Shown here in pieces: positions 3,397-63,990 of a stretch of DNA of 64,000 nt. The notes under the pieces are model-generated. The model had not been told where the DNA came from. It was given only the letters and a program-made list of their open reading frames with translations, and searched no databases. The position numbers and the translations under genes are program-made. Location: IMG/VR virus record IMGVR_UViG_2721755712_000001; one strand, given 5' to 3'. The stretch comes from a virus. Its lineage: Duplodnaviria > Heunggongvirae > Uroviricota > Caudoviricetes. Numbering within the stretch: position 1 is the first letter of the stretch; the number at the start of each line of letters is the position of its first letter.

Positions 3397-3660
3397 GTGC
3401 TTTCCTTTGTTTTTTAAACAAATTGTTTTCTAGTATTAGTTAATTAGATAGGGGATCAATAAACCGCCGTGCTTCTTCCAGTTCTTCTGGAAAGTGGGCG
3501 GAAATAAGGCGCTCTGGAACGATTTCCATTAGCCAGATAGCGGAGAAAATTGCGCGTATGCGCTTGCTGCGGGGGATGGTGCGTAAACGCTCCAGAATCC
3601 ACTCAAAATAGCTTTCCTGAATCGGGTTGAACTGCATGTCTCCCATATGCTTAAAGCTAA

Positions 3661-37480: not shown

Positions 37481-37535
37481 TCTAAAACAACTTGTTTACT
37501 GAATCTGCTAACCAACTTGTTTTCTGGGGTGTTTA
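37481..37535 (-). promoter_or_regulatory. two adjacent class I operator-like palindromes upstream of terS
   Basis: AAAACAACTTGTTTAC and AACCAACTTGTTTTCTGG, followed by GGGGTGTTTAATTAG (minus strand CTAATTAAACACCCC), matching the class I leader consensus. Confidence 0.45.
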
Positions 37536-42802: not shown

Positions 42803-43369
42803 ATGAGTTGGTTAAAAGAATTATCATTTGTTGACACCACTGGCGCTAAGAAAAATCATTCTTTCTGGAAAGTCAGCGATCCTTCTGATTTTCTTGTTGG
42901 TGCTAATGCTGCTTTTGAATTGCTTAACTTTTATCAACGTTATCCAGAAATGAAACACAGTCCACTCCTGTACAGAATAACAAACGATATGAATAGGTCT
43001 GGTTTATTATCAAGTGAGTCAGCGAAAGGCTTTTTTAGCAAAATTACGCCTCACATATCATTCGATGCAACAAACGAAATTGATTATCTATCCACGAAAT
43101 CTCAAGAACAATTATCTGTACCACCTGAGAAAAAAGAAAGACGAATTGCCAGCATTGAAAATATATCGAAAGAGCTTCGCACAACAACGTTGAGGCTGCT
43201 GAACTTTCTTACGCTGCTTAATTGGATAGATGATCAAACATTGATTCCATCAACAGATGCGTTGGATAACAGAGTCCTTAGGCTGAACAAAAAATCGCAA
43301 TTTGGTTTTGTGTTCACCAAAAAAGGTGAAGATTTAATCAAAAGAAAATATAGATTATTGAATGATTAA
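42803..43369 (+). CDS. hypothetical protein
   Basis: Start at ATG 42803 with AAGGAG RBS; the RBS lies inside a perfect 9-bp hairpin (42772-42802); strong terminator hairpin at 43378-43406. Confidence 0.4.
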   Translation: MSWLKELSFVDTTGAKKNHSFWKVSDPSDFLVGANAAFELLNFYQRYPEMKHSPLLYRITNDMNRSGLLSSESAKGFFSKITPHISFDATNEIDYLSTKSQEQLSVPPEKKERRIASIENISKELRTTTLRLLNFLTLLNWIDDQTLIPSTDALDNRVLRLNKKSQFGFVFTKKGEDLIKRKYRLLND

Positions 43370-44656: not shown

Positions 44657-45178
44657 ATGGTTAAAGACATCACCTACGGCATACCGGCTGAAGTCTGGCC
44701 GCGAGACTACGAACATGCTGAAAACATACTTATGTTCTGGCGGAAGAACAACATTCCTGTAAGAGTCACGCTTGAAGACGGTCAGGTGTTTTGCATGTAC
44801 GTTCAGGGGACAATGCCTTCCCGCAATAAGCTAGATTTATGCCCGCTTCCATATGATAAAGAAAATCGTATAAGACTCCCACTTGAGCGCATTAGCACAA
44901 TTGAATCAGGTGTAATCGATGGCATTGCTCGCGAGTTCAAAGGTAGGCTAACAATACATCCAGACTATGTTGACAATCAGCCATCACGCCGTGACTTTTT
45001 TGCGATATGTCGCAAGGCTTATCAAAACGACCAATCTATAAGGGTCTACATGACAGACGGTCGTGAAATAGAAGGGGTGTCAAGAGGCGTTGATGCTTGC
45101 CAGGTCACTCTTAAGTTAGAAGACGGCAGAAAAATACTTGTTTTCTTCGATTGGGTTGAACGAATCCTTCCATTTTAA
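44657..45178 (+). CDS. hypothetical protein (internal duplication of a ~45-aa segment)
   Basis: 173 aa; two related segments (VRVTLEDGQVFCMYVQG / VTLKLEDGRKILVFFDW). Confidence 0.4.
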   Translation: MVKDITYGIPAEVWPRDYEHAENILMFWRKNNIPVRVTLEDGQVFCMYVQGTMPSRNKLDLCPLPYDKENRIRLPLERISTIESGVIDGIAREFKGRLTIHPDYVDNQPSRRDFFAICRKAYQNDQSIRVYMTDGREIEGVSRGVDACQVTLKLEDGRKILVFFDWVERILPF

Positions 45179-46893: not shown

Positions 46894-47009
46894 CCGTTTC
46901 CCGAAAAAATCCTGGCCGTTTCCCGTCGGCTCATGAATACGTTCCTCGCCGTTTCTGAAAATTTCCCTGCGGCAGCTGGTTGCTATATAGAAAGGGCCGT
47001 TTCTGGCCC
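46894..47009. repeat. iteron-like direct repeat cluster A (CCGTTTCCCGAAAA-type units, ~4 copies)
   Basis: CCGTTTCCCGAAAAAATCC, CCGTTTCCCGTCGG, CCGTTTCTGAAAATTTCCC, CCGTTTCTGGCCC; same unit family as cluster B at 50311-50640. Confidence 0.6.
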
Positions 47010-47018
47010 TCTTCTCAG

Positions 47019-47501
47019 TTACACGCCATCAAGGATGTGGATGCGGTTGCTGGCGTATACATTCAGCATAAAGTTAGCGCAAAACAGTTTCCATGTATCA
47101 ACGCCAGCGGTATACGTAATGTTTTTGCATTTAATCGCATTGTTGGCGATCCGCATCCCCTGCGATACTGCTTCATCGTCGGAAAATTTGAACGACGATT
47201 GAGTTTTAATCCAGACAGAAATCTGCGTAGCGAACTCAATCAGCTTGGACTGGCAGAATCGCCCGGAGCGCACCGGAAAGACGAACGTTCCGAATCCAGA
47301 ATTTACCACATACGCTTTCTCAAATACCCGCGAGTAACGACGATTGCCAATGATGTCGCGTGCAATAATGCATTTTTCTTGTGCTGACAGTTCTACCGTC
47401 TCATTGTCGCGCCATGCACCAAGTACTCGTTTTTCAATGTCAGAGAACGTTACAGCGATATTGCCATGTGCGGGTGCGTTTACAGTAGCGATAAAATTCA
47501 T
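47019..47501 (-). CDS. hypothetical early protein
   Basis: 160 aa; class I promoter/operator upstream; iteron cluster A just downstream. Confidence 0.45.
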   Translation of the reverse strand: MNFIATVNAPAHGNIAVTFSDIEKRVLGAWRDNETVELSAQEKCIIARDIIGNRRYSRVFEKAYVVNSGFGTFVFPVRSGRFCQSKLIEFATQISVWIKTQSSFKFSDDEAVSQGMRIANNAIKCKNITYTAGVDTWKLFCANFMLNVYASNRIHILDGV

Positions 47502-47520
47502 GATTATTTCCTTATCGTAA

Positions 47521-47555
47521 ATAACAAATTGTTTTCTTGTTGGTGTTAATTATCG
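47521..47555 (-). promoter_or_regulatory. class I promoter/operator (minus strand CGATAAT-TAACACCAACAAGAAAACAATTTGTT)
   Basis: -10-like GATAAT with TTGACG 15 nt upstream, then a conserved leader ending in the AACAA-A-TTGTT palindrome. Confidence 0.5.
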
Positions 47556-47705
47556 TTGTACGAATAAGGCGTCAAAGTGGAAAGTTGCGGTAGCCGGACG
47601 AGAACAGGTGGGTTTGTCGGTTGCCTGGAGGTAAGAGGTTGGTGTTTTTAGCCTGCGGGAAACAGGATGGTCATTTAAGGCCACCAGCATTGGTGGCCTT
47701 AGTCT

Positions 47706-47993
47706 TTAGTGGAGCAGACCGATGTCGATGGTATCCCCTGAATCATCCACACGGATCATCAGCATGGCGAAGGCGTTTAGTGGATAGCTTGCGTGCCATT
47801 CAGGGAAGCGGTCATCTCGCATGAAGTCGGCAATGTCGTAAACGCAGCCCTCAAAGTGGAAGAATCGCGTGCTTACCTGCTCGTCATATTCCACATGATC
47901 CATTTCTTGCTGTTCTGTTTCCGGCAAGTCCAGCCATGATTCAAGGAATACATTTTGTGCTTTAGGGGTAATGGTGAAATCAGTCATGAGCAT
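47706..47993 (-). CDS. small acidic early protein (hypothetical; anti-defence/DNA-mimic candidate)
   Basis: ATG 47991-47993 with GAGGA RBS; 95 aa, strongly acidic; class I promoter upstream. Function is speculative. Confidence 0.45.
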   Translation of the reverse strand: MLMTDFTITPKAQNVFLESWLDLPETEQQEMDHVEYDEQVSTRFFHFEGCVYDIADFMRDDRFPEWHASYPLNAFAMLMIRVDDSGDTIDIGLLH

Positions 47994-48006
47994 ATCCTCA
48001 CTGCGT

Positions 48007-48040
48007 AAACATATTGTTTTCTTGTTGGTGTAATTATCGC
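48007..48040 (-). promoter_or_regulatory. class I promoter/operator (CGATAAT-TACACCAACAAGAAAACAATATGTTT)
   Basis: Same architecture as the 47521-47555 site. Confidence 0.5.
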
Positions 48041-48322
48041 AGTGTAGATAAGGCATAAAAGAAGTTAATACAGGCTGAATACACAAGAAAGGTTCTGGAA
48101 GTTGATAGCCAGGTTTCAAACTAACCTTCGGTTATTAAAAGTCATTTAAGACCACCAATGCTGGTGGCCTTAATAATTATCGCCCGATTACGCTAAGGAT
48201 CTTTTCCTCAACTGATTTGTTGTTGCGACTAAACTGCCTTGCGTATCTGATGACAGAAGAGGCGTTTTGCTTTCTGACCATCTCGGCTCTTTCCTTCAGG
48301 CGTTTCTTGAAATCGCCCATAT

Positions 48323-48697
48323 TTACCACCAGGCGCAGAAGGTCAGTCTGTTATTGTGAAAGTCGTGGTTCTTAATCAGATCTTCCACAAGCTCTTTCAA
48401 CTCCCCCACATCATGCCAGTAACCTTCATCGTACTCCTGACTGCCGAAGAAAAAACCTTCCCGGGTAGGCAAGTACTCTTCGCAATTACTTTCGTTTATG
48501 TGCATCAAATGAGCCTTCAGAAAACAAATGTCATTCATCGTTAATTCTAAAAGCTCACAATTTTCGACTTCACCTACGTTGCGCTCCATCCACCCAACGA
48601 GCGCATTGAACTTACGGAAGTAAGCAACCTGCTTTCTGGATGCCTCGTTATTCAGATCGTTTTTAGGCTGTGTCTCGATATAGATATCAAGTCCCAT
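48323..48697 (-). CDS. hypothetical early protein
   Basis: ATG 48695-48697 with AAGGAAA RBS; 124 aa; class I-like palindrome upstream at 48757-48773. Confidence 0.45.
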   Translation of the reverse strand: MGLDIYIETQPKNDLNNEASRKQVAYFRKFNALVGWMERNVGEVENCELLELTMNDICFLKAHLMHINESNCEEYLPTREGFFFGSQEYDEGYWHDVGELKELVEDLIKNHDFHNNRLTFCAWW

Positions 48698-48814
48698 GAT
48701 GGTTTCCTTATTAAGTTGCTTCAGTGAAATCATTTTCACAAATCAGATAAGGCAGAAAACAAATTGTTATCGGGTATAAGAAAATGGCGCGGTTTACGCG
48801 CCATTTAAAGAGGA

Positions 48815-49210
48815 TTAAGCGAATACGCTTTCAGGGATTAAGGTGTCGGCAGGAATGCCAGAGGTAATGCGCAGACCGTACTGGCCAATCCAGGTGGTGC
48901 TGGTGTTCAGGCTGGAGGCGAATACGGTGTTAACCATATTCATCATGGTTTCAAACACCTCTTCATCAACCTGGCGGAAGTAGTTCTCGATTTTCAGCAG
49001 CAGAGGGTCAGTTGCATCGAGAATGGACTGGTATTGAGTCGCGTACTCGCCGCCGGAGGCATCACCTTTACGCACGATCGTACTGGCCTGGACTTCGGCA
49101 CCAGTTTCGGTGTTGTACGTAACAACGGTGATTTTTGCCACATTCTTACCTTCGGCGGTTTCAGAGGCATAGTAAACATCAACTGTCAGTTTTTCGCGTT
49201 TAACGGTCAT
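48815..49210 (-). CDS. hypothetical protein
   Basis: ATG 49208-49210 with GGAGAG RBS; 131 aa; class II motif upstream at 49253-49269. Confidence 0.45.
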   Translation of the reverse strand: MTVKREKLTVDVYYASETAEGKNVAKITVVTYNTETGAEVQASTIVRKGDASGGEYATQYQSILDATDPLLLKIENYFRQVDEEVFETMMNMVNTVFASSLNTSTTWIGQYGLRITSGIPADTLIPESVFA

Positions 49211-49336
49211 TTCACTCTCCGTAGTGTATTGGTTATTTTTATATTCTATGATCGTAAGTATGTACTTACAATACAAAAAAGCCCCGTAAGGATGGCGGGG
49301 CTGTCGTACTGTCGACTAATTACCACTTGCACATTA

Positions 49337-49648
49337 TCAGGCTATTGCCATCACTGATGCTCTCTGAATTTCTTGCTGGGCCACGCGGTTAACTTCCATC
49401 AAGGCCAGTTCGAGCTGATGTTCCGGCCACATTCTTTGAAATGCCACCCATCCTTTTCCACGCTGGCGACGAACATTCATTACATAACGAGTAAAGGTGT
49501 TTTTATCGAAAGACACCGCTGTTTCACGGAACAGACGAATAGAAGTTCCATTGGCAACGATGTCTAGCAAAGTTAATTGAGCAACCAGTGCAGGCTTCTC
49601 TTTTCTCTTCTGGTCTTTGTCCAGACCAAGAACCAATGATTTTTTCAT
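49337..49648 (-). CDS. hypothetical early protein
   Basis: ATG 49646-49648 with GGAG RBS; 103 aa; class I palindrome AACAACTTGTTTTC at 49661-49674. Confidence 0.4.
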   Translation of the reverse strand: MKKSLVLGLDKDQKRKEKPALVAQLTLLDIVANGTSIRLFRETAVSFDKNTFTRYVMNVRRQRGKGWVAFQRMWPEHQLELALMEVNRVAQQEIQRASVMAIA

Positions 49649-49801
49649 CACAACTCCGTAAACAACTTGTTTTCTCAATGGCGTAAATAATACCAGTAAG
49701 AAAACGGCTACAAAGCATAATGATCAGGTGCATGATCGATATGCAGGTTCCTCCCAGCGGCTATAGAGAAATTAAGCCAGCAATGCTGGCTTTGGTTGGG
49801 A

Positions 49802-50131
49802 TTACGCGAATACCTCAAGAAACTCCTGAACGTCCCAATGCTGGACGAGGTGAAGATAGACCTTAGAAATCACGTCATTTTCGCTATCGCATGTGAAGTA
49901 GTACTTCTGGCTGCGGTTGTATGTGTCCACACAAAATTCGCTCATATCCATAAAGTCAGCATCTTCACCCATGTCGCAAATCATCAAAGCAGGTGCGTCA
50001 TCACGAGTCATCAGCTCAAGCACCCACCGCGAATTGATCAGAGTGGAAGACCAACCTTCTAACTCATAAAACTGATCAAACTCTTTTTGAGTTAATTTCT
50101 TGATTTGGTTGATGTCGATATTTGCAAACAT
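49802..50131 (-). CDS. small acidic early protein (hypothetical; anti-defence candidate)
   Basis: ATG 50129-50131 with AAGGA RBS; 109 aa acidic; class I promoter/operator at 50144-50177 (the track's upstream ATG lies inside the operator). Confidence 0.45.
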   Translation of the reverse strand: MFANIDINQIKKLTQKEFDQFYELEGWSSTLINSRWVLELMTRDDAPALMICDMGEDADFMDMSEFCVDTYNRSQKYYFTCDSENDVISKVYLHLVQHWDVQEFLEVFA

Positions 50132-50310
50132 AAAGCAATCCTTAAACAACATGTTTTCTTGATGGTGTTATTATCGCAATAACGCACAGGCGAAAAAGGA
50201 TTTTATTCCGGTGAATGTGGTTTTGGCAGTGAGTTTTCAGGTTCAGTACCGAGTACACTTTTTACATTATTCTGATTTAGTGGCCGAAAGTGGCTGGTGG
50301 GCAGAATAAT

Positions 50311-50640
50311 CCTCTCCCCGAAAACCTACTGAAATCGATTGTGACCCGTTGGCTGTCTGGCACAATTACGCTGTAGCTGGGCATTCAGAGGGAATCCAGC
50401 GGTAAGCAAGTCCGCCTACGTGAGCGCCTCTCTTCTTCCCGCACATTACAGGTGGGTAGCCGCAACTCTCCCTCTCGCTATACCGGTACGCCACCGTTCC
50501 TGAACCGGCATCGAGCCTTCTCCCGAAATCCACACAGGCAACTCGACCGTTTCCCTGAAAACCTCCAGCCGTTCCCCGAAGGCAACCCAGCCGTTTCTGT
50601 AGCGGGATGCAGCCTTTTCCCTGTATGGACCGAAGGCTGA
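50311..50640. repeat. iteron-like direct repeat cluster B (~7 degenerate 22-bp units, consensus CCGTTTCCC-GAAAA...CAGC)
   Basis: e.g. CGTTTCCCTGAAAACCTCCAGC / CGTTCCCCGAAGGCAACCCAGC / CGTTTCTGTAGCGGGATGCAGC in register at 22-bp spacing; non-coding (track ORFs here are low-complexity artefacts). Confidence 0.6.
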
Positions 50641-50779
50641 CCGTAGGGGTGTTACGGGGGATAAAATCAGGAGTTGAATAAATACGAAAAAGGAGGCGAC
50701 ACCCCTCCTTCCCTCTCCACTTATACATACCTGGCTTCTTCGCTATACATGTTGTGTTTTCTTCGTGTTTTATCTGTCT

Positions 50780-51570
50780 CAACCTCTCTATAGGCGTTAA
50801 TGCTCACTCCTTCCAGAACGTTCTATACGGCGACTATTTCTGTTGGTGAATTGGGTGTGTTGTTTTCTCTGTCGGTGTATGTGGTTTCGTTAGTTTTGCG
50901 GTGATTCTTCTATGGGGTGTTCTCGTCGTTTTGGTGATTGTTCTTCTCCGTGTATGGAGTAATGGCAGGTGGGCGATTGCTTTCGTTATTGTGTTTGAGT
51001 TGTTTGTCTGGAGTGTGTGAAAGGCTTTTGTAGTTATTCGTGTATTGGGTAATGGCGTTTCCCGTGATTGTTACGCTTCGTGTCTTTTGGGATTGAGAGA
51101 AACCTTGCGGTTACAGGCTTCGTTGGGGTTTCAGCGGTTCAGGTGTTTCTTCGCTGTTTGGGTAATGGCGTGTCGTGGGTATCGCGCGTATGAATGTTTT
51201 CGGATTGCCTGTGAAAGTTAGGTTGGTTGTCCGGTAGCCTGAGAAGAAGAGGTGGGTCTTTTCGGTAGCCTGCCATAAAGAGGTTGGTTGTTATGGGGAA
51301 TGGCATATGTGTTATTTAGTTGTTTTGTTATAGCTGAAAATAAGTTGTTTATATAGTTATGTAACGCAATGGGAGTGATTTTGAGCGTGTGTTTTTGTTG
51401 GTAGTGTGTTGGGTCGTCTGTGGTGAAAATTGGACGCTGTGGCGCTGTCTGCTGCGTAGAATTACGGGTATAAGAAGTGATGTGTGAATACGTCAATTTT
51501 TTAGACCAAATCGGGTGAAAGCGTTGACGTTTCGTTGATCTGTTATTTAGTTGTTTTCTTATTGGTATAA
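50780..51570. repeat. GT-skewed non-coding tract (~800 bp) with several degenerate direct-repeat families
   Basis: Plus strand almost only G/T; repeated GGGTAATGGCG-type units (50951, 51041, 51150, 51290), CGGTAGCCTG x2 (51230-51275), TGTTATTTAGTTGTTTT x2 (51311, 51541); no credible ORF. Confidence 0.6.
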
Positions 51571-51703
51571 ACAACGTTAACCTATTGATATTTAAAGGTG
51601 TGATTGCAGGTATGGAAGAAGAGTAGTGGCGATCAACGGATTCTTATAGAAAAGAATCAAATTGTGACCGCCATTATCAACTGATTGATTAAGCTAATTA
51701 CAC

Positions 51704-53064: not shown

Positions 53065-53364
53065 CTACCAACACCAGCACTCAAGCCCTTCAACGATCGG
53101 CGCACCACAATCAAAATGTACAGAGTCAAAGCCTACATCAAGTACTTTCTGAATGTTAGCAATCGCGCCTTCGGATATACCATATCGACGCAAGTCGTCT
53201 TTCCAGACATCATCCTGTAACCCGGCGTGGACAATACAACCGCCATCAATTTGTGAAACCCAATCCAGCTCATTGCTTGCGATCATGAATCGGCGAGCAT
53301 CTTCCTCTGATGTATGAGATGAACTGATCAATGCCACCTGGTAGGCTTGGGTAATGTTCAACAT
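53065..53364 (-). CDS. hypothetical protein (last element-type gene before the chromosomal junction)
   Basis: ATG 53362-53364 with GGAGTGG RBS; two class I palindromes upstream (53378-53392, 53427-53442). Confidence 0.4.
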   Translation of the reverse strand: MLNITQAYQVALISSSHTSEEDARRFMIASNELDWVSQIDGGCIVHAGLQDDVWKDDLRRYGISEGAIANIQKVLDVGFDSVHFDCGAPIVEGLECWCW

Positions 53365-53376
53365 TTCAACCACTCC

Positions 53377-53445
53377 GAAACAATTTGTTTTCTTATGTGG
53401 CTTATTATCTCAATCAACAAAAGGTAGAAAACAAATTGTTTTAGG
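53377..53445 (-). promoter_or_regulatory. tandem class I operator-like palindromes (GAAACAATTTGTTTTC and GAAAACAAATTGTTTT) with GAGATAAT -10-like element between
   Basis: Two copies of the AACAA-N-TTGTT dyad 35 bp apart upstream of gene 53065..53364. Confidence 0.5.
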
Positions 53446-53525: not shown

Positions 53526-55559
53526 TTACTTAACCTGGTGGCCAGGTTTAGCACCAGCATCCGGGCTTAACAGGAAGATATCTTTCCCGCCGGGGCCAGC
53601 AGCCATCACCATACCTTCGGAGATGCCGAAGCGCATCTTACGCGGAGCCAGGTTAGCCACCATAATGGTGTGACGACCAATCAGTGCCTGTGGGTCTGGA
53701 TAAGCAGAACGGATGCCTGAGAAGACATTGCGTTTTTCACCGCCGAGATCCAGCGTCAGGCGCAGCAGTTTGTCAGAACCTTCAACAAACTCTGCGTTTT
53801 CGATCAGTGCCACGCGCAGGTCAACTTTGGCAAAGTCGTCAAAGGTGATGGTTTCCTGAATCGGGTCGTCTGCCAGCGGGCCAGTAACTGGCGCGGCAGT
53901 AGCTTTCACTTCTTCTTTAGACGCTTCCACCAATGCTTCCACCTGTTTCATGTCGATACGGTTATACAGTGCTTTGAACGGATTCACTTTATGGCCCAGC
54001 AGCGGTTGCTGGATGCCATCCCAGGTCAGTTCCGTATTCAGGAATGCTTCCGCACGTTCTGTCAGTTTCGGCAGTACCGGTTTCAGGTAAGTCATCAGCA
54101 CGCGGAACAGGTTGATGCCCATTGAGCAAATCGCCTGCAGGTCAGCATCGCGACCTTCCTGTTTTGCGACTACCCAAGGAGCCTGCTCGTCGACATAGCG
54201 GTTAGCCAGGTCAGCCAGTGCCATGATTTCACGGATAGCTTTACCAAATTCGCGGCTTTCCCACGCTTCACCAATCACTTCAGCGGCATCAGTGAAGGTT
54301 TTGTACAACTGCGGGTCAGCCAGCTCGCTTGCCAGCACACCGTCAAAACGCTTATTGATAAAGCCAGCGTTACGGGACGCCAGGTTAACCACTTTGTTCA
54401 CGATATCGGCATTCACACGCTGAACGAAATCCTCCAGGTTGAGATCGATATCATCAATGCGCGAAGAGAGTTTCGCAGTGTAGTAGTAACGCAGGCTGTC
54501 AGCGTCAAAATGATTCAACCAGGTGCTGGCTTTAATAAAGGTGCCGCGAGACTTGGACATCTTCGCGCCGTTCACCGTCACATAGCCGTGAACAAACAGG
54601 TTGGTCGGCTTGCGGAAGTTGCTGCCTTCCAGCATGGCAGGCCAGAACAGGCTGTGGAAGTAAACGATATCTTTACCGATGAAGTGGTACAGCTCGGCGG
54701 TGGAGTCTTTCTTCCAGTATTCATCGAAGCTGGTAGTGTCGCCGCGCTTGTCGCACAGATTCTTGAAGGAACCCATGTAGCCAATCGGTGCGTCCAGCCA
54801 GACGTAGAAATATTTACCCGGCGCGTTCGGAATTTCAAAACCGAAGTAAGGTGCGTCGCGGGAGATATCCCACTGTTGCAGACCAGATTCAAACCACTCC
54901 TGCATTTTGTTTGCCACCTGCTCCTGCAACGCACCGCTGCGGGTCCATGCCTGCAACATTTCGCTGAAAGAGGGCAGATCAAAGAAGAAGTGTTCAGAAT
55001 CACGCATTACCGGGGTAGCACCAGAAACCACCGATTTCGGCTCGATCAGTTCAGTCGGGCTGTAGGTCGCGCCGCAAACTTCACAGTTATCGCCGTATTG
55101 ATCTGGCGCTTTACATTTCGGGCAGGTGCCTTTCACAAAACGATCCGGCAGGAACATGCCTTTTTCCGGGTCGTACAACTGAGAGATAGTGCGATTTTTA
55201 ATAAAACCGTTCTCTTTCAGGCGAGTATAGATAAGCTCAGACAACTGACGGTTCTCTTCGCTGTGCGTCGAGTGATAGTTGTCATAGCTGATGTTAAAGC
55301 CTGCGAAATCAGTCTGGTGTTCCTGACTCATTTCGCCAATCATCTGCTCCGGTGTGATACCAAGTTGCTGTGCTTTCAGCATGATCGGCGTACCGTGGGC
55401 ATCGTCGGCACAGATGAAATTAACCTCGTGGCCGCGCATTCGCTGGTAACGAACCCAGACATCAGCCTGGATGTGCTCCAGCATATGGCCGAGGTGGATT
55501 GAGCCGTTAGCGTACGGCAGCGCGCACGTCACCAGAATTTTCTTCGCGACTTGGGTCAT
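53526..55559 (-). CDS. metG: methionyl-tRNA synthetase
   Basis: 677 aa from ATG 55557-55559 ([29 protein letters not shown]...); HIGH-type and KMSKS motifs; matches Escherichia-type MetG as recalled. Confidence 0.97.
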
Positions 55560-55716
55560 AGTAGGCATTACTTCTTTGTAGTGAAAAGGGGCTTGATAGT
55601 AACAAAATGGCCTTATGTCTGCCATGTGATAACAGCATTTCTCATAAATGATTAAATGTCGCAGCTGGAGTACACTACAAGGCGACAATTGCGCAAATTA
55701 AAATAAAGGAGACGGG

Positions 55717-56854: not shown

Positions 56855-57244
56855 CTACATCACGGGACAATCATCAAACTCGCCACTTCTTGCGTCGTTG
56901 ATAATGTGAGTGATCACACCAAACACGGCATTGCTGCTCGTGCATCCATCGTCATCCTTTGGCAATGCTTCCTTCTTACCGGTTCTTAAATCCTCCAGAT
57001 GCTGACGTGGATACTTCCGGTATCTTTTTACGCGATATTCCCCATCCAGAGCGCATACAAGCAGAGAACCATCAACCGGGGTAAGTGAGGAATCGACCAC
57101 CAGCAATGCACCCTGTAATATTCCCTCACGATGATGACTATCAGCTGCCCTCATGAAGTAGGTCGCTGAAGGATGTCTAATTATCTGCTGATCAAGAGAA
57201 ATACGGCTCTCAGCATAATCCGCCGCAGGAGAAGGGAAGCCCAT
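56855..57244 (-). CDS. UmuD'-like S24 peptidase-family protein (begins at the position equivalent to the UmuD autocleavage site; no umuC partner)
   Basis: MGFPSPAADY... aligns with UmuD from Gly25 onward as recalled; Ser (AADSH) and Lys (EYRVKRYRK) at the expected catalytic positions; LexA box 19 nt upstream; divergent extended C-terminus. Confidence 0.65.
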   Translation of the reverse strand: MGFPSPAADYAESRISLDQQIIRHPSATYFMRAADSHHREGILQGALLVVDSSLTPVDGSLLVCALDGEYRVKRYRKYPRQHLEDLRTGKKEALPKDDDGCTSSNAVFGVITHIINDARSGEFDDCPVM

Positions 57245-57945: not shown

Positions 57946-59508
57946 ATGAAAATGACAAGTATTCAACAACGTGCAGAGCTTCATCGCCAGATCTGGCAAA
58001 TTGCTAACGATGTCAGGGGTTCAGTCGATGGATGGGATTTTAAGCAGTACGTTTTGGGCGCGCTTTTTTACCGTTTTATCAGCGAAAATTTTTCCAGTTA
58101 TATTGAAGCCGGTGATGACAGTATCTGTTATGCGAAACTGGATGACAGCGTAATTACTGATGACATTAAAGACGATGCCATCAAAACTAAAGGCTACTTC
58201 ATCTACCCCAGTCAGCTTTTCTGCAACGTAGCTGCGAAAGCAAATACTAATGACAGACTGAATGCAGATTTAAACAGCATCTTCGTTGCTATCGAAAGTT
58301 CTGCTTACGGTTATCCTTCAGAAGCTGACATCAAAGGTTTGTTTGCTGATTTCGATACCACCAGTAACCGCCTGGGTAACACCGTTAAAGATAAAAATGC
58401 CCGCTTGGCTGCGGTTCTGAAAGGGGTTGAAGGGCTAAAACTTGGTGACTTCCATGAACATCAGATTGACCTGTTCGGTGACGCCTATGAGTTCCTGATT
58501 TCTAACTATGCGGCGAATGCCGGTAAGTCCGGCGGCGAGTTCTTTACACCGCAGCACGTCTCTAAGCTGATTGCACAACTGGCTATGCACGGGCAGACCC
58601 ACGTTAACAAAATCTACGACCCGGCAGCAGGCTCCGGTTCGCTGTTGTTGCAGGCGAAAAAACAGTTTGATGACCATATCATCGAAGAAGGTTTTTTTGG
58701 TCAGGAAATCAACCATACGACCTATAACCTGGCGCGTATGAACATGTTTTTGCACAACATCAACTACGACAAGTTTGATATCAAGCTGGGTAATACACTG
58801 ACTGAGCCGCACTTCAGAGATGAAAAACCGTTTGATGCCATCGTTTCTAACCCGCCGTATTCGGTGAAATGGATTGGCAGCGATGACCCGACGCTGATTA
58901 ACGATGAACGTTTTGCCCCGGCTGGCGTTCTGGCCCCCAAATCCAAAGCTGACTTTGCGTTTGTATTACATGCGCTGAACTATCTTTCGGCCAAAGGTCG
59001 CGCTGCGATTGTCTGCTTCCCAGGCATTTTTTACCGTGGCGGCGCGGAGCAGAAAATCCGTCAGTATCTGGTCGACAATAACTATGTCGAAACCGTGATT
59101 TCACTGGCACCGAATCTGTTCTTTGGCACCACTATTGCCGTCAATATTCTGGTGCTGTCTAAACATAAAACGGATACCAAAGTTCAGTTTATTGATGCCA
59201 GCGAACTGTTCAAAAAAGAGACTAACAACAACATTCTGACCGATGCTCATATCGAACAGATTATGCAGGTATTTGCCAGCAAGGAAGATGTTGCTCATCT
59301 GGCGAAATCTGTTGCGTTTGAGACTGTTGTCGCGAATGACTATAACCTGTCGGTGAGCAGCTATGTGGAAGCGAAAGATACTCGCGAAATTATCGATATC
59401 GCTGAGCTGAATGCTGAGCTGAAAACCACGGTCAGCAAAATCGACCAGTTGCGTAAAGATATTGATGCGATTGTTGCTGAGATTGAAGGTAGCGAGGTAC
59501 AGGCATGA
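57946..59508 (+). CDS. hsdM: type I restriction-modification system methyltransferase subunit (type IC, EcoR124-like)
   Basis: 520 aa, [26 protein letters not shown]...; N6-adenine MTase motifs (NPPY in SNPPYS, AdoMet motif DPAAGSGS); near-identical to EcoR124I HsdM as recalled. Confidence 0.95.
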
Positions 59509-60752
59509 GCGAGCTGAGTTATCTGGAAAAACTGCTGGATGGGGCTGAGGTTGAGTGGGTAGCATTAAATAAATTAGCAACTTTTTTAAAAGGGAAGTCT
59601 TTACCTAAAGAAAAAATAACTCCAGATGGCAATAGATATTGTATTCATTACGGTGAGCTTTTCACTCATTATGGTCCCATAATTGACAAAGTATGCTCAA
59701 AAACAAACCAAGCAATCAATGAGTCAATTCTATCTGAAAAAAATGATGTTCTAATGCCAACGTCAGACGTTACACCAAGAGGTTTGGCTACAGCTAGTTG
59801 CATTCAAGAAAGTGGCGTTATTTTAGGCGGCGATATTTTGATTATTAGATGCTCTGGTGTTGATGGTAGATATCTAAGTAATTTCATAATAAATAACAAA
59901 AAAAAGATATTGCAAATGGTTAAAGGTTCTACTGTTTATCATTTGTATGCTAAAGATATAGGTAAATTACTTATCCCCATCCCTTGCCCCAACAACCCGG
60001 AAAAGTCGCTGGCTATCCAGTCTGAAATCGTCAGGATTCTGGATAAATTTACTGCGCTTACCGCTGAGCTTACCGCTGAGCTTAGCATGCGTAAAAAACA
60101 ATACAACTACTATCGCGACCAGTTGTTGAGTTTTAAAGAGGGTGAGGTTGAGTGGAAAGCTTTGGGGGAAATTGGTGAAGTTCGTATGTGTAAACGAATC
60201 CTAAAATCACAAACATCTTCTGAGGGAGAGATTCCATTTTATAAAATTGGGACATTTGGTAAGGAACCCGATTCCTATATATCTAGAAAACTATTTAATG
60301 AATTTAAAGAAAAATATAGTTATCCTAAAGTTGGCGAAGTATTGATTTCTGCCAGTGGGACCATCGGCAGGACTGTTATATTTGATGGTAGGGAATCATA
60401 TTTCCAGGATAGCAATATTGTCTGGATTGAAAATAATGAAAAAATAGTTTTAAATAAATATTTATTCTATTTCTATAAAATAGCAAAATGGGGAATATCT
60501 GAAGGTGGAACTATTAAAAGACTTTATAATGATAACTTAAGAAAACTTATGATACCAGTACCATTTCCTGATTCTCCTGAAAGATCGCTAGTTGAACAAC
60601 AAAAAATAGTGAAATTACTGGATAAATTTGATGCTTTGACCAATTCCATCACCGAAGGTCTTCCGCGTGAAATCGAGTTGCGCCAGAAACAATACGAGTA
60701 CTATCGTGATTTACTGTTCAGTTTTCCCAAACCTGAAACTATCAGTAACTAA
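59505..60752 (+). CDS. hsdS: type I R-M specificity subunit (type IC) with two TAEL repeats in the central spacer
   Basis: 415 aa; two target-recognition domains with AT-rich codon usage; central conserved region with LTAELTAEL (12-bp tandem repeat at 60056-60079); ATGA overlap with hsdM. Confidence 0.9.
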
Positions 60753-60873
60753 TTGACCATTGCTACCGACCGGATCACCTTAACATCCGGTCTATATAGA
60801 GACTATTTTTTACACGCCGGAAGTCGCCCTTAAAGCCCTTCCGGCCCTTGCCAGACGGCACAAAGGATGCGCT

Positions 60874-63800
60874 ATGACTCATCAGACACACACCATTGCT
60901 GAATCCAATAACTTTATCGTTCTTGATAAGTACATCAAAGCCGAGCAAACAGGCGACAGCTACCAGAGCGAATCGGACCTGGAACGTGAACTGATTCAGG
61001 ATCTGCGGAATCAGGGCTATGAATTTATTTCCGTAAAATCTCAGTCGGCGATGCTGGCCAACGTTCGGGAACAGCTTCAGAACCTCAATGGTGTGGTGTT
61101 TAATGACAGCGAATGGCGGCGTTTCACGGAGCAGTATCTGGATAACCCGAGCGATGGCATCCTGGATAAGACCCGTAAAATCCATATCGACTATATTTGC
61201 GACTTTATTTTTGATGACGAGCGTCTTGAGAACATCTATTTGATAGATAAAAAGAATCTCATGCGCAACAAGGTGCAGATTATCCAGCAGTTTGAACAGA
61301 CGGGTTCTCATGCTAACCGTTATGACGTCACGATCCTGGTTAATGGCTTACCGCTGGTACAAATCGAACTGAAAAAGCGCGGCGTGGCGATTCGTGAGGC
61401 CTTTAACCAGATACATCGTTACAGCAAAGAGAGTTTTAACAGCGAAAATTCTCTGTTTAAGTATCTGCAACTGTTTGTCATTTCCAACGGCACCGATACC
61501 CGTTACTTTGCCAACACGACAAAGCGCGATAAAAACAGTTTTGACTTCACCATGAATTGGGCGAAATCAGACAACACGCTGATTAAAGACCTCAAAGACT
61601 TTACCGCCACCTTTTTCCAGAAACATACCCTGCTTAATGTCTTAGTGAACTACAGCGTATTCGATGTTAGCCAAACGCTACTGGTGATGCGACCGTACCA
61701 GATTGCCGCCACTGAGCGCATTCTGTGGAAAATTAAGAGTTCCTTTACAGCGAAGAACTGGTCAAAACCGGAAAGCGGTGGGTATATCTGGCACACTACC
61801 GGTTCAGGTAAAACCCTCACCAGCTTTAAAGCCGCGCGTCTGGCAACAGAGCTGGACTTTATTGATAAAGTCTTCTTCGTGGTCGACAGGAAAGACCTCG
61901 ATTACCAGACCATGAATGAATATAAGCGTTTTTCGCCAGACAGCGTCAACGGCTCGGAAAATACCGCAGGTCTTAAACGCAATCTGGATAAGGACGATAA
62001 CAAAATTATCGTCACCACTATTCAGAAACTTAATAACCTGATGAAAGCAGAAAGCGACCTGCCTGTATACAATCAGCAAGTGGTGTTTATATTTGATGAA
62101 TGTCACCGCAGCCAGTTTGGAGAAGCGCAGAAAAACCTGAAGAAGAAATTCAAACGCTATTATCAGTTTGGTTTTACCGGCACACCTATTTTCCCGGAAA
62201 ACGCCTTAGGCTCAGAAACGACCGCCAGCGTATTTGGTCGTGAATTGCATTCGTATGTAATTACCGATGCGATTCGTGATGAAAAAGTGCTCAAATTCAA
62301 GGTGGACTACAACGATGTGCGGCCACAGTTTAAATCTTTAGAGACAGAAACCGACGAGAAAAAACTGAGTGCGGCTGAAAATCAGCAGGCATTTCTTCAT
62401 CCCATGCGTATACAGGAAATTACGCAATATATTCTGAATAACTTCCGCCAGAAGACCCACCGTACTTTCCCAGGTTCCAAAGGCTTTAATGCCATGCTGG
62501 CAGTGAGTAGCGTGGATGCCGCGAAAGCCTATTACGCGACGTTTAAACGGTTACAAGAGGAAGCAGCTAATAAATCGGCTACCTATAAACCGCTGCGTGT
62601 TGCAACAATCTTCTCCTTTGCCGCCAATGAAGAACAAAATGCCATTGGTGAAATTTCCGATGAAACTTTTGATACCAGCGCAATGGACAGCAGTGCTAAA
62701 GAGTTTCTTGACGCTGCAATTCGTGAGTATAACAGCTATTTTAAAACTAACTTCAGCACCGACAGTAACGGTTTTCAGAACTACTATCGTGATTTAGCCC
62801 AACGGGTTAAAAATCAGGATATCGATCTGTTAATTGTCGTTGGGATGTTTTTAACCGGCTTCGACGCTCCAACATTGAACACGCTATTCGTCGATAAAAA
62901 CTTGCGTTTTCACGGCCTGATGCAGGCATTCTCCCGTACCAACCGCATTTATGACGCTACTAAAACCTTCGGTAACATCGTCACTTTTCGGGATCTGGAA
63001 CGCTCAACCATTGATGCCATAACGCTGTTTGGTGATAAAAATACTAAAAATGTGGTGTTAGAAAAGAGTTATGCTGAGTATATGGAAGGCTTTACAGATG
63101 CTGCCACTGGTGAAGCTAAACGCGGCTTTATGGCAGTAGTTTCAGAACTGGAACAACGGTTCCCTGACCCTGCCAGTATTGAAAGTGAAAAAGAGAAGAA
63201 AGACTTCGTAAAACTGTTTGGTGAATACCTGCGTGCCGAGAACATCCTGCAAAACTATGATGAATTTGCCACGCTGAAAGCCCTGCAACAAATCGATCTT
63301 AGCGATCCTGTTGCGGTAGAAAAATTCAAAGCAGAACATTATGTGGATGATGAAAAGTTCGCTGAATTGCAAACAATTCGTCTCCCTGCTGAACGCAAGA
63401 TTCAGGATTATCGTTCTGCCTATAACGATATTCGCGACTGGCAGCGCCGTGAGAAAGAAGCTGAGAAAAAAGAGAAATCAACCACTGACTGGGATGACGT
63501 AGTTTTTGAGGTCGATTTGCTGAAGTCTCAGGAAATAAACCTGGATTATATCCTTGGACTGATTTTCGAACACAACAGACAAAATAAAGGCAAGGGCGAA
63601 ATGATCGAAGAGGTCAAACGCTTAATTCGTTCAAGCCTGGGGAACCGGGCGAAAGAGGGCCTGGTGGTCGATTTTATTCAGCAAACGAACCTGGATGATT
63701 TACCAGACAAAGCCAGTATCATTGAGGCATTCTTTACGTTTGCTCAACGCGAACAGCAACGTGAAGCAGAAGCATTGATAAAAGAAGAAAATCTCAATGA

Positions 63801-63990
63801 AGAGGCGGCGAAACGCTATATTCGCACGTCTTTAAAACGCGAATACGCCACCGAAAATGGCACAGAATTAAACGAGACATTACCAAAACTTAGTCCGTTA
63901 AACCCGCAATATAAAACGAAAAAACAGACCGTTTTCCAGAAAATCGTCACGTTTATTGAAAAGTTCAAAGGAGTAGGTGGACAGATATAG
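60874..63990 (+). CDS. hsdR: type I R-M restriction endonuclease/translocase subunit (type IC, EcoR124-like)
   Basis: 1038 aa; SF2 motor motifs (GSGKT Walker A, DECHRSQ DEAH-like) and N-terminal nuclease region; length and sequence match EcoR124I HsdR as recalled. Confidence 0.95.

Follow-up and report, generated by a model that had tools for sequence, protein, structure and literature searches.

Two classes of promoter palindrome and a row of small candidate entry genes in an SSU5-type phage-plasmid

INTRODUCTION

In the plasmid prophage P1, the C1 regulon places one operator sequence over many separate promoters, and the Lpa-dependent late promoters carry an inverted repeat. In the kor regulon of plasmid RK2, KorB operators, which are 13-bp palindromes, lie at many promoters, including those of partition genes and of the anti-restriction gene klcA, and permit brief expression on entry before shut-off. 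T7 Ocr (PF08684) and ArdA (PF07275) are small, very acidic anti-restriction proteins made when their DNA enters a cell; as DNA mimics, mostly dimeric, they present carboxylates in an array like that of B-DNA and inhibit type I restriction. The leading regions of conjugative elements hold anti-defence islands, which are rows of small genes expressed on entry (PMC11541004). Here we analyse a block of seven small minus-strand genes (g1, g2, g2b, g3, g4, g5 and g6; 47019–50131) in a 64,000-nucleotide stretch of viral DNA (IMG/VR record IMGVR_UViG_2721755712_000001, hereafter the window). The firmest result of the analysis is that motifs of two conserved classes exist, of which one is a dispersed operator. 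The reading that we favour, at a probability of roughly 45%, is that the block consists of small “arrival” cassettes in a row, most of them of a single gene, which would be gated by a repressor and act on the host after entry.

The block and its flanks (46900–50300) are 98.3% identical to Escherichia phage Cyrano (phage-plasmid pLF82) and 99% identical to many E. coli IncFIB plasmids of ~110 kb, and match elements of Klebsiella, Salmonella (SSU5), Yersinia, Enterobacter and Citrobacter more weakly. Judged by the Cyrano, IncFIB and SSU5 matches, therefore, the window is a piece of an SSU5-type phage-plasmid. Six of the genes had been listed in an earlier note made from the letters of the DNA, and these open reading frames (ORFs) agree with the RefSeq and Cyrano annotations. 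The note's inventory of six genes with two acidic proteins holds for the six frames and for the acidity of g2 and g6; it had overlooked g2b, a gene that is annotated in Cyrano alone, and the charge of g3 (−12 over 124 amino acids). A Shine–Dalgarno-like box (AAGGA, GAGGA or GGAG) stands 6–8 nt 5′ of the ATG in all six of g1–g6, which bears out the good ribosome-binding sites that had been described. Annotated records name the block genes “hypothetical protein” throughout, with the sole exception of g2, which several records (NCBI, PLSDB) label “ABC transporter”; at 93 amino acids and with no such domain, g2 does not merit this label, which we reject as a propagated misannotation.

Ratios of nonsynonymous to synonymous substitution (dN/dS) of 0.07–0.2 for g1, g2 and g5, measured against their Salmonella and Klebsiella homologues, identify these three as true coding genes; purifying selection was seen in the four genes for which different genera were compared. 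Four of the genes are found in SSU5 and in the three Klebsiella elements with which the block was compared, at identities of 68–82% (g1), ~80% (g2), 62–64% (g5) and 35–54% (g4), whereas g6, and g3 together with g2b, are variable cassettes among these four elements. Scans of all seven proteins against Pfam, NCBIfam and PADLOC returned no family match, PHROGs returned only families of “unknown function”, and sequence and profile searches of the PDB returned no match. Homology to structural or replication proteins, which the earlier note had named as evidence that would refute its proposal, was looked for in these family and PDB searches and found for no block protein. Rfam gave no RNA family match over 44–54 kb, and the literature yielded no paper that names the block proteins by accession and none that describes SSU5 operators.

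A DISPERSED PALINDROME AT EXTENDED −10 PROMOTERS

The first class, motif A (AGAAAACAAnnTGTTT), has as its core the 13-bp palindrome AAACAA-N-TTGTTT and matches the window 21 times against 1.25 expected, a 17-fold enrichment that none of 100 shuffles reached. It begins 10–11 nt after a GATAAT or TATTAT hexamer, in a fixed orientation, at g1, g2, g5, g6 and a DUF5983 gene described below, and the hexamer at motif A promoters is mostly preceded by TGn, making an extended −10 element. At these genes the motif covers the predicted transcription start and ends 11–20 nt before the ATG. The corresponding promoter/operators, all on the minus strand, are those of g1 (47522–47554; −10 GATAAT at 47549–47554, motif A at 47522–47537, at about +1), g2 (48007–48041; TGcGATAAT at 48033–48041, motif A at 48007–48022), g5 (49660–49695; TGgTATTAT at 49687–49695, motif A at 49660–49675) and g6 (50144–50178; TGcGATAAT at 50170–50178, motif A at 50144–50159). 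The g3 promoter (48732–48772) is laid out otherwise: TGtGAAAAT (48732–48740) is followed upstream by a 16-nt spacer and then by motif A (48754–48772), which is centred near −38, about 38 bp upstream of the predicted start site and over the −35 position, and this layout recurs in a distant metagenomic relative (L026). A scan with the sigma-70 consensus did not detect the motif A promoters because, being of the extended −10 type, they have no −35 hexamer. The proposal that each of the six genes has its own class I promoter/operator is thus borne out in canonical form for g1, g2, g5 and g6 and with a displaced site for g3; g4 has no motif A and belongs to the second class.

At some promoters both positions are occupied, as at 53378 with 53429, at 37485 with 37510 and at the Klebsiella g2 promoter; the paired sites lie ~50 or 25 bp apart and partly upstream of the promoter. 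The dyad symmetry and the location of second sites beyond the transcript speak for a dimeric DNA-binding protein and against an RNA element. The order of motifs along the block (A before the g6 slot, A before g5, B before g4, one or two A before g2, A before g1) is the same across SSU5 and the three Klebsiella elements, the upstream pattern A/A/B/A/A is also found in a distant metagenomic relative, and motif A is kept upstream of the g1 homologues in L005–L008.

The motif reaches well beyond the block. In Cyrano it precedes, always in the orientation of the gene, terS (two sites), parA, the replicative helicase gene, cobT, the gene for the beta subunit of ribonucleotide reductase (RNR), a TciA-like gene and other small genes, acidic ones among them, as well as CYRAN_87 and CYRAN_58, the latter followed by CYRAN_59, which encodes the element's most acidic protein. 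Strongly acidic proteins account for five of the 14 first genes after a motif A site and for four of the 103 others among the 117 Cyrano proteins (Fisher p = 0.001). The sites before terS, parA and the other genes just named lie at 3416, 8305 and 37485/37510 in the window and at 43102, 58592, 70323, 80546 and 81275 in Cyrano. A small acidic protein of 99 amino acids with a DUF5983 C-terminal domain is encoded at 53065–53364 on the minus strand, with motif A at 53378–53393 and 53429–53444 flanking its promoter, and this gene is part of the motif A regulon.

Because the motif sits at +1 and the genes behind it are quiet in lysogens, as described below, we infer that motif A is the operator of a putative dimeric repressor encoded by the element. 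The arrangement would be like that of P1 in that one operator is scattered over separate promoters while a second class, with an inverted repeat, serves late genes; it differs in its operator, which has 13 bp and is symmetric here but lacks symmetry in the case of P1 C1. It is like the kor regulon of RK2 in having a 6-1-6 palindrome, over the −35 position or elsewhere, at many promoters, those of partition genes included. The operator sequence differs, however, and binding of motif A by a ParB-like protein is conjecture.

A SECOND PALINDROME CLASS SHARED BY g4 AND THE VIRION GENES

The gene g4 (48815–49210; 131 amino acids, net charge −7) carries motif B, not motif A. Its promoter (49243–49271, TTGTAA-17-TAGAAT) encloses in the spacer the palindrome GTAAGTACATACTTAC, a perfect one at 49254–49269, and the motif, GTAAGTAnnTACTTAC, matches the window 15 times against 1.48 expected. 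Sites lie at 763, 6152, 10900, 15112, 22031, 28542, 34033, 35540, 40832 and 49254 and are often preceded by ATAA or ATAG; most of those other than the g4 site stand just upstream of structural-module genes (portal, tail and others), with one further site at 763. The motif is one that g4 shares with virion and lysis genes. Although g4 evolves fast, its protein falling to 35% identity with its homologues, SSU5 and all three Klebsiella elements retain motif B ahead of their g4 homologues (L005–L008). SSU5-type phage-plasmids probably use motif B as their late-gene promoter or activator site, and g4 is probably a late gene, a timing that we infer from the company it keeps. Matches of g4 to CARF/Csm6-like models were rejected, as their E values (0.02–0.05) fall far short of curated cut-offs and the three models concerned are mutually related.

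EXPRESSION IN A SISTER ELEMENT

RNA sequencing of the LF82/Cyrano system, reported as normalised counts from overnight growth in lysogeny broth (PMC9928086, S1 table), describes the 98%-identical sister element Cyrano in its lysogens. Counts are 12.8 for g6, 12.2 for g5, 17.0 for g4, 5.7 for g3, 57.9 for g2b, 6.7 for g2 and 25.5 for g1, to be read against a prophage median of 9.8, a “moron” cut-off of 49 and a value of 96 for the putative repressor gene (PMC9928086). The genes g1–g6 are therefore near background in lysogens (5.7–25.5 against the cut-off of 49), and g2b is the exception. Expression of g6 and g1 inside macrophages peaks at 1 h (log2 ~7.6) and has dropped by 6 h, while g4 rises from 6.2 to 7.2 by 6 h, as does the capsid gene, from 4.0 to 7.6 (PMC9928086); these profiles, indirect and taken from the sister element, fit two temporal classes. 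The earlier description of the block as early, individually regulated genes is supported in part by the separate promoter and terminator of each gene, the common operator class and the near-background counts, and has to be narrowed for g4, which lies outside that class.

As a separate observation, g2b (CYRAN_109; 48177–48320; 47 amino acids, basic) stands about sixfold above background in Cyrano lysogens, while g3, whose stop codon overlaps the g2b start, is silent. The g2b signal may come from a promoter of its own inside g3, or from a small RNA.

THE g3 FAMILY AND ITS ANTI-RESTRICTION NEIGHBOURS

Among the block proteins, g3 (48323–48697; 124 amino acids, net charge −12) has the most informative relatives in conjugative elements. 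It has 79 database relatives, which form a family of about 120 amino acids with the invariant motifs MGLD (N-terminal), YFRKxNxL, LLPTxxGFFFGSxEYD and WW (C-terminal). Its members are acidic throughout, at a median net charge of −12, and neither Pfam nor the PDB contains a match to them. The start of g3 is fixed at 48697 by the MGLD with which each of the 44 aligned homologues opens; the longer RefSeq start falls inside the predicted −10 element.

A chromosomal integrative conjugative element (ICE) of E. coli has its g3 homologue two genes upstream of ArdA, and LPD29 and DUF1281 genes are found nearby. In another ICE, the homologue lies 12 nt upstream of the genes for ArdB/KlcA (PF03230) and MPTase-PolyVal, near TraG and TraI, and on a third contig it comes next after ArdA and stands two genes ahead of ArdC. 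When one genome per species was scanned, 67 loci of the family were found, and the 135 neighbouring ORFs of the 19 closest loci include ten with ArdC domains and two or three with an Antirestrict domain; in 12 of the 14 closest proteobacterial loci, ArdC and/or ArdB stands on the same strand and either abuts the g3 homologue or lies within ~460 nt. Altogether, at least 15 conjugative-element loci have a g3 homologue next to ArdA, ArdB or ArdC, the partner being ArdA in L009–L013 and L022, ArdB in L015/16, L028 and L033 and ArdC in 11 loci. That the linkage persists while both partner and gene order vary is the pattern expected of genes that take part in one process.

The likeness to conjugative anti-defence clusters is that, in many ICE loci, homologues with 37–54% identity adjoin ArdA, ArdB/KlcA or ArdC and share its strand. 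The g3 of the window, by contrast, belongs to a phage-plasmid, and neither the block nor its surroundings contain an Ard gene; the link is one of neighbourhood only. An anti-defence role for g3 is, on this neighbourhood, plausible. Of the candidate anti-defence genes proposed earlier, g3 is the one that gains from the analysis, while g2 and g6 have nothing in their favour beyond charge.

THE ACIDIC PROTEINS g2 AND g6

The strong acidity noted earlier for g2 and g6 is confirmed. The g2 protein (47706–47987) carries a net charge of −15 over 93 amino acids when its start codon is placed at 47987, the better position, and g6 (49802–50131) one of −13 over 109 amino acids; in negative charge per residue they rank second and fifth among the 117 Cyrano proteins, and g3 ranks twelfth. 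The D-F-M segment that g2 and g6 were said to share turns out to be a coincidence of four residues: hhalign aligns only “ADFM”, at a probability of 0.2% (0.4% when a wider g2 profile is used), and kinship between the two was rejected, as was kinship between g3 and g2 by profile–profile comparison.

At first g2 looked limited to SSU5-like elements. An exhaustive profile search, however, found ~80 further clusters of proteins of 85–105 amino acids, which makes g2 a member of a wider phage family of ~95-residue proteins with the consensus ..TN..R.L..W.DL...EQ.EFDY...FFRY.G..YD...FMR...WHG...AFSG.LI...GD.V.VG, and tblastn placed members in virulent phages of Pseudomonas, Edwardsiella, Vibrio, Marinobacter, Erwinia, Pectobacterium and Rhodococcus. 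Among 58 members, net charge spans +1 to −18 (median −7), and the best-conserved positions are mostly aromatic or hydrophobic (FMR, WHG, AFSG) rather than acidic; both features argue against a conserved DNA-mimic surface. Neither Pfam nor the PDB holds a match to g2. The g6 protein is an orphan, found almost only in E. coli-type phage-plasmids, with ten database relatives, of which the named ones are from E. coli, and its slot in SSU5 and the Klebsiella elements is filled by two genes of ~70 amino acids. AlphaFold2 models of g2 and g6 are of low confidence (mean pLDDT 57.7 and 55.5) and too poor for use, and a Foldseek search of the PDB with the g6 model gave no match at E ≤ 0.001.

With Ocr and ArdA, then, g2, g3 and g6 have in common their size range and net charge. 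They differ from them in having no sequence similarity (the profiles PF08684, PF07275 and PF03230 are unmatched by all seven block proteins), in belonging to three unrelated families and, for the g2 family, in an acidity that is not conserved.

THE CORE GENES g1 AND g5 AND THE EXCHANGE OF CASSETTES

The remaining two genes encode basic proteins: g1 (47019–47501), of 160 amino acids with an isoelectric point of 9.2, which belongs to PHROG 1641 (function unknown), and g5 (49337–49648), of 103 amino acids with an isoelectric point of 10.5, which is an SSU5-group core gene. Among phage records g1 is found only in the SSU5 group, and no relatives of g1, g5 or g6 were found outside that group. Both g1 and g5 are lineage-specific core proteins that may bind nucleic acid.

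Each block gene has its own hairpin terminator, and the modules around g2 and g3 are repeated. The g2 terminator hairpin (47675–47702) is nearly identical to that of g2b (48146–48173), the two forming repeat family D10 and inverted repeat I1, and the g2 and g3 promoters are homologous in their upstream halves (repeat family D3). Duplicated modules flank the g3–g2b insertion, with terminators at 47670–47708 and 48141–48179 and promoters at 48033–48066 and 48732–48765. Of the four elements compared, one, from Klebsiella, has g3, there fused into the g2 unit. The near-identical terminators, the homologous promoter halves and the position of g3 inside the Klebsiella g2 unit suggest that the small genes are exchanged by recombination between repeated promoter and terminator modules. 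A further repeat family, D4, with copies between g1 and g2 and at 51.2 kb, did no better than chance and was rejected.

WEIGHING THE EXPLANATIONS

The favoured reading, that of arrival cassettes, can be put as a mechanism. The cassettes would sit in the accessory arm of an SSU5-type phage-plasmid, where extended −10 sigma-70 promoters, with motif A at the start or over the −35 position, would drive g1, g2, g3, g5 and g6. A putative dimeric repressor encoded by the element would bind motif A and keep these genes off in the resident plasmid, and they would come on when the element enters a repressor-free cell or is induced, with g4 falling into a separate class along with the virion and lysis genes. 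The products would be soluble binding or inhibitor proteins that strike the host just after entry. Most likely, g3 would help the incoming DNA escape restriction or another defence, since its family recurrently adjoins ArdA, ArdB/KlcA and ArdC in integrative conjugative elements, whereas g2 and g6 would be acidic proteins of unassigned target.

Several observations weigh against this reading. Motif A is missing from the intergenic region next to CYRAN_45, which is annotated as the repressor gene, and parA, which carries the motif, is nevertheless moderately expressed in lysogens. The RNA sequencing comes from the related element, and the start sites and infection timing of the block are predicted only. 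Pfam, NCBIfam, PADLOC and the PDB offer no known family of anti-defence, structural or replication proteins to which any block protein matches, so that function has to be read from context alone, and for the g2 family that context is uninformative, the neighbours in other phages being hypothetical proteins. As for g3, the linkage with Ard genes is limited to a proteobacterial ICE clade in which several loci are mutually related and hence not all independent, and distant homologues in Firmicutes, Bacteroidota and large phages have no Ard gene about them, their contexts being those of mixed mobile elements or of DNA metabolism.

What the products do is one point on which other explanations diverge. 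It is somewhat unlikely, in our estimate, that the block genes serve the development of the element or the takeover of the host rather than counter-defence, as regulators, as helpers of replication or recombination, or as inhibitors of host transcription, the nucleoid or cell division. The strong purifying selection on the basic, conserved core genes g1 and g5 would suit such roles, as would the control of helicase, RNR, parA and terS genes by the same motif, the replication genes among the neighbours of g2-family members and the position of distant g3 homologues in large phages, between genes for dUTPase or dCTP deaminase and DNA ligase; yet the Pfam and PADLOC/NCBIfam scans found no DNA-binding or enzymatic domain in any block protein, g3 and g6 vary between elements as cassettes, as genes with core developmental functions seldom do, and the closest relatives of g3 are tightly linked to three different anti-restriction families. 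The proposal from which the analysis started, that g2 and g6 mimic DNA in the manner of Ocr and ArdA and thereby block type I restriction enzymes, we regard as improbable. Both are among the top five of the 117 proteins in negative charge density, and both are small and have motif A promoters. Their size and charge lie within the range of small mimic proteins such as Ugi. They match no Ocr, ArdA or Antirestrict model in Pfam, NCBIfam, PADLOC or the PDB, however, and are unrelated to each other by hhalign; the charge of the 58-member g2 family is uneven and its conservation aromatic or hydrophobic; and the models are unusable, the Foldseek search with the g6 model having been negative (E < 0.001). 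Net charge is thus all that speaks for the claim. The nearby restriction–modification (R-M) system, to which the earlier note had tied it, is a complete type IC, EcoR124-like hsdM–hsdS–hsdR set (57946–63990, plus strand); the Cyrano annotation lists no hsd genes even though the block is present there at 98% identity, and the system is therefore uninformative on block function.

The nature of motif A is the other point. Were it not the operator of a lysogeny repressor and instead the site of a KorB/ParB-like regulator, an activator site or an RNA element of the 5′ untranslated region (UTR) bound by an FljA-like protein, the timing of the block as early and silent in lysogeny would be wrong. The dispersed KorB operators of RK2 are 6-1-6 palindromes, as motif A is; motif A occurs at the parA promoter in an element that encodes two ParB-like proteins, has in most units a fixed orientation within the 5′ UTR, and is lacking beside the annotated repressor gene, and a FljA homologue is encoded 2 kb away. 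Against these points stand the second copies upstream of the promoter and outside the transcript (53429, 37510 and the Klebsiella g2 promoter), the position at +1, from which a site cannot activate transcription, the weakness of the palindrome as RNA (a hairpin of only 5 A–U base pairs) and the near-background expression of the genes in lysogens. We consider a non-repressor role for motif A unlikely.

The arrival-cassette reading can also be extended. The g3 family would then be a new, widespread anti-restriction or anti-defence family of ICEs and phage-plasmids, and the motif A regulon a set of repressor-gated entry genes that includes more counter-defence proteins, among them g2, g6, the DUF5983 protein (53065–53364) and CYRAN_58/59. 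This extension is speculative, and we would sooner bet against it than for it.

OTHER FEATURES OF THE WINDOW

Beside the block, the ~1.5 kb at 50200–51700 has no convincing gene; RefSeq annotates none, and the Cyrano ORFs there look doubtful. Local repeats occur in it at 50944, 51034 and 51147 and at 51307/51538, with a motif-A-like site at 51335, and no tandem repeats were found in 50.1–51.75 kb. On the other side of the block, a homologue of FljA, the Salmonella phase-1 flagellin repressor, is encoded on the plus strand (44657–45178; PF03614, E = 1e-80) and is conserved in SSU5-type elements; it may affect host flagellin expression or the element's own mRNAs. The minus strand further encodes a full methionyl-tRNA synthetase (53526–55688) and a UmuD-like S24 peptidase with no DNA-binding domain (56855–57244), the gene for which has a high count of 148 normalised reads in Cyrano lysogens.

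CONCLUSION

Among clinical E. coli, Shigella, Salmonella, Klebsiella and Yersinia, phage-plasmids of the SSU5 type are common. A survey reports that known anti-defence genes are scarce in this group (bioRxiv 10.1101/2025.09.12.675607), and it spreads across hosts with many defence systems despite how few such genes can be recognised in it; the block is therefore a sensible place to seek new ones, with g3 ranking first among the candidates and g2 and g6 after it. The two promoter/operator classes could be used to find the remaining entry genes and the regulators of the switch between plasmid and phage. If the g3 family does prove to serve counter-defence, an uncharacterised gene in many conjugative elements would thereby be annotated.

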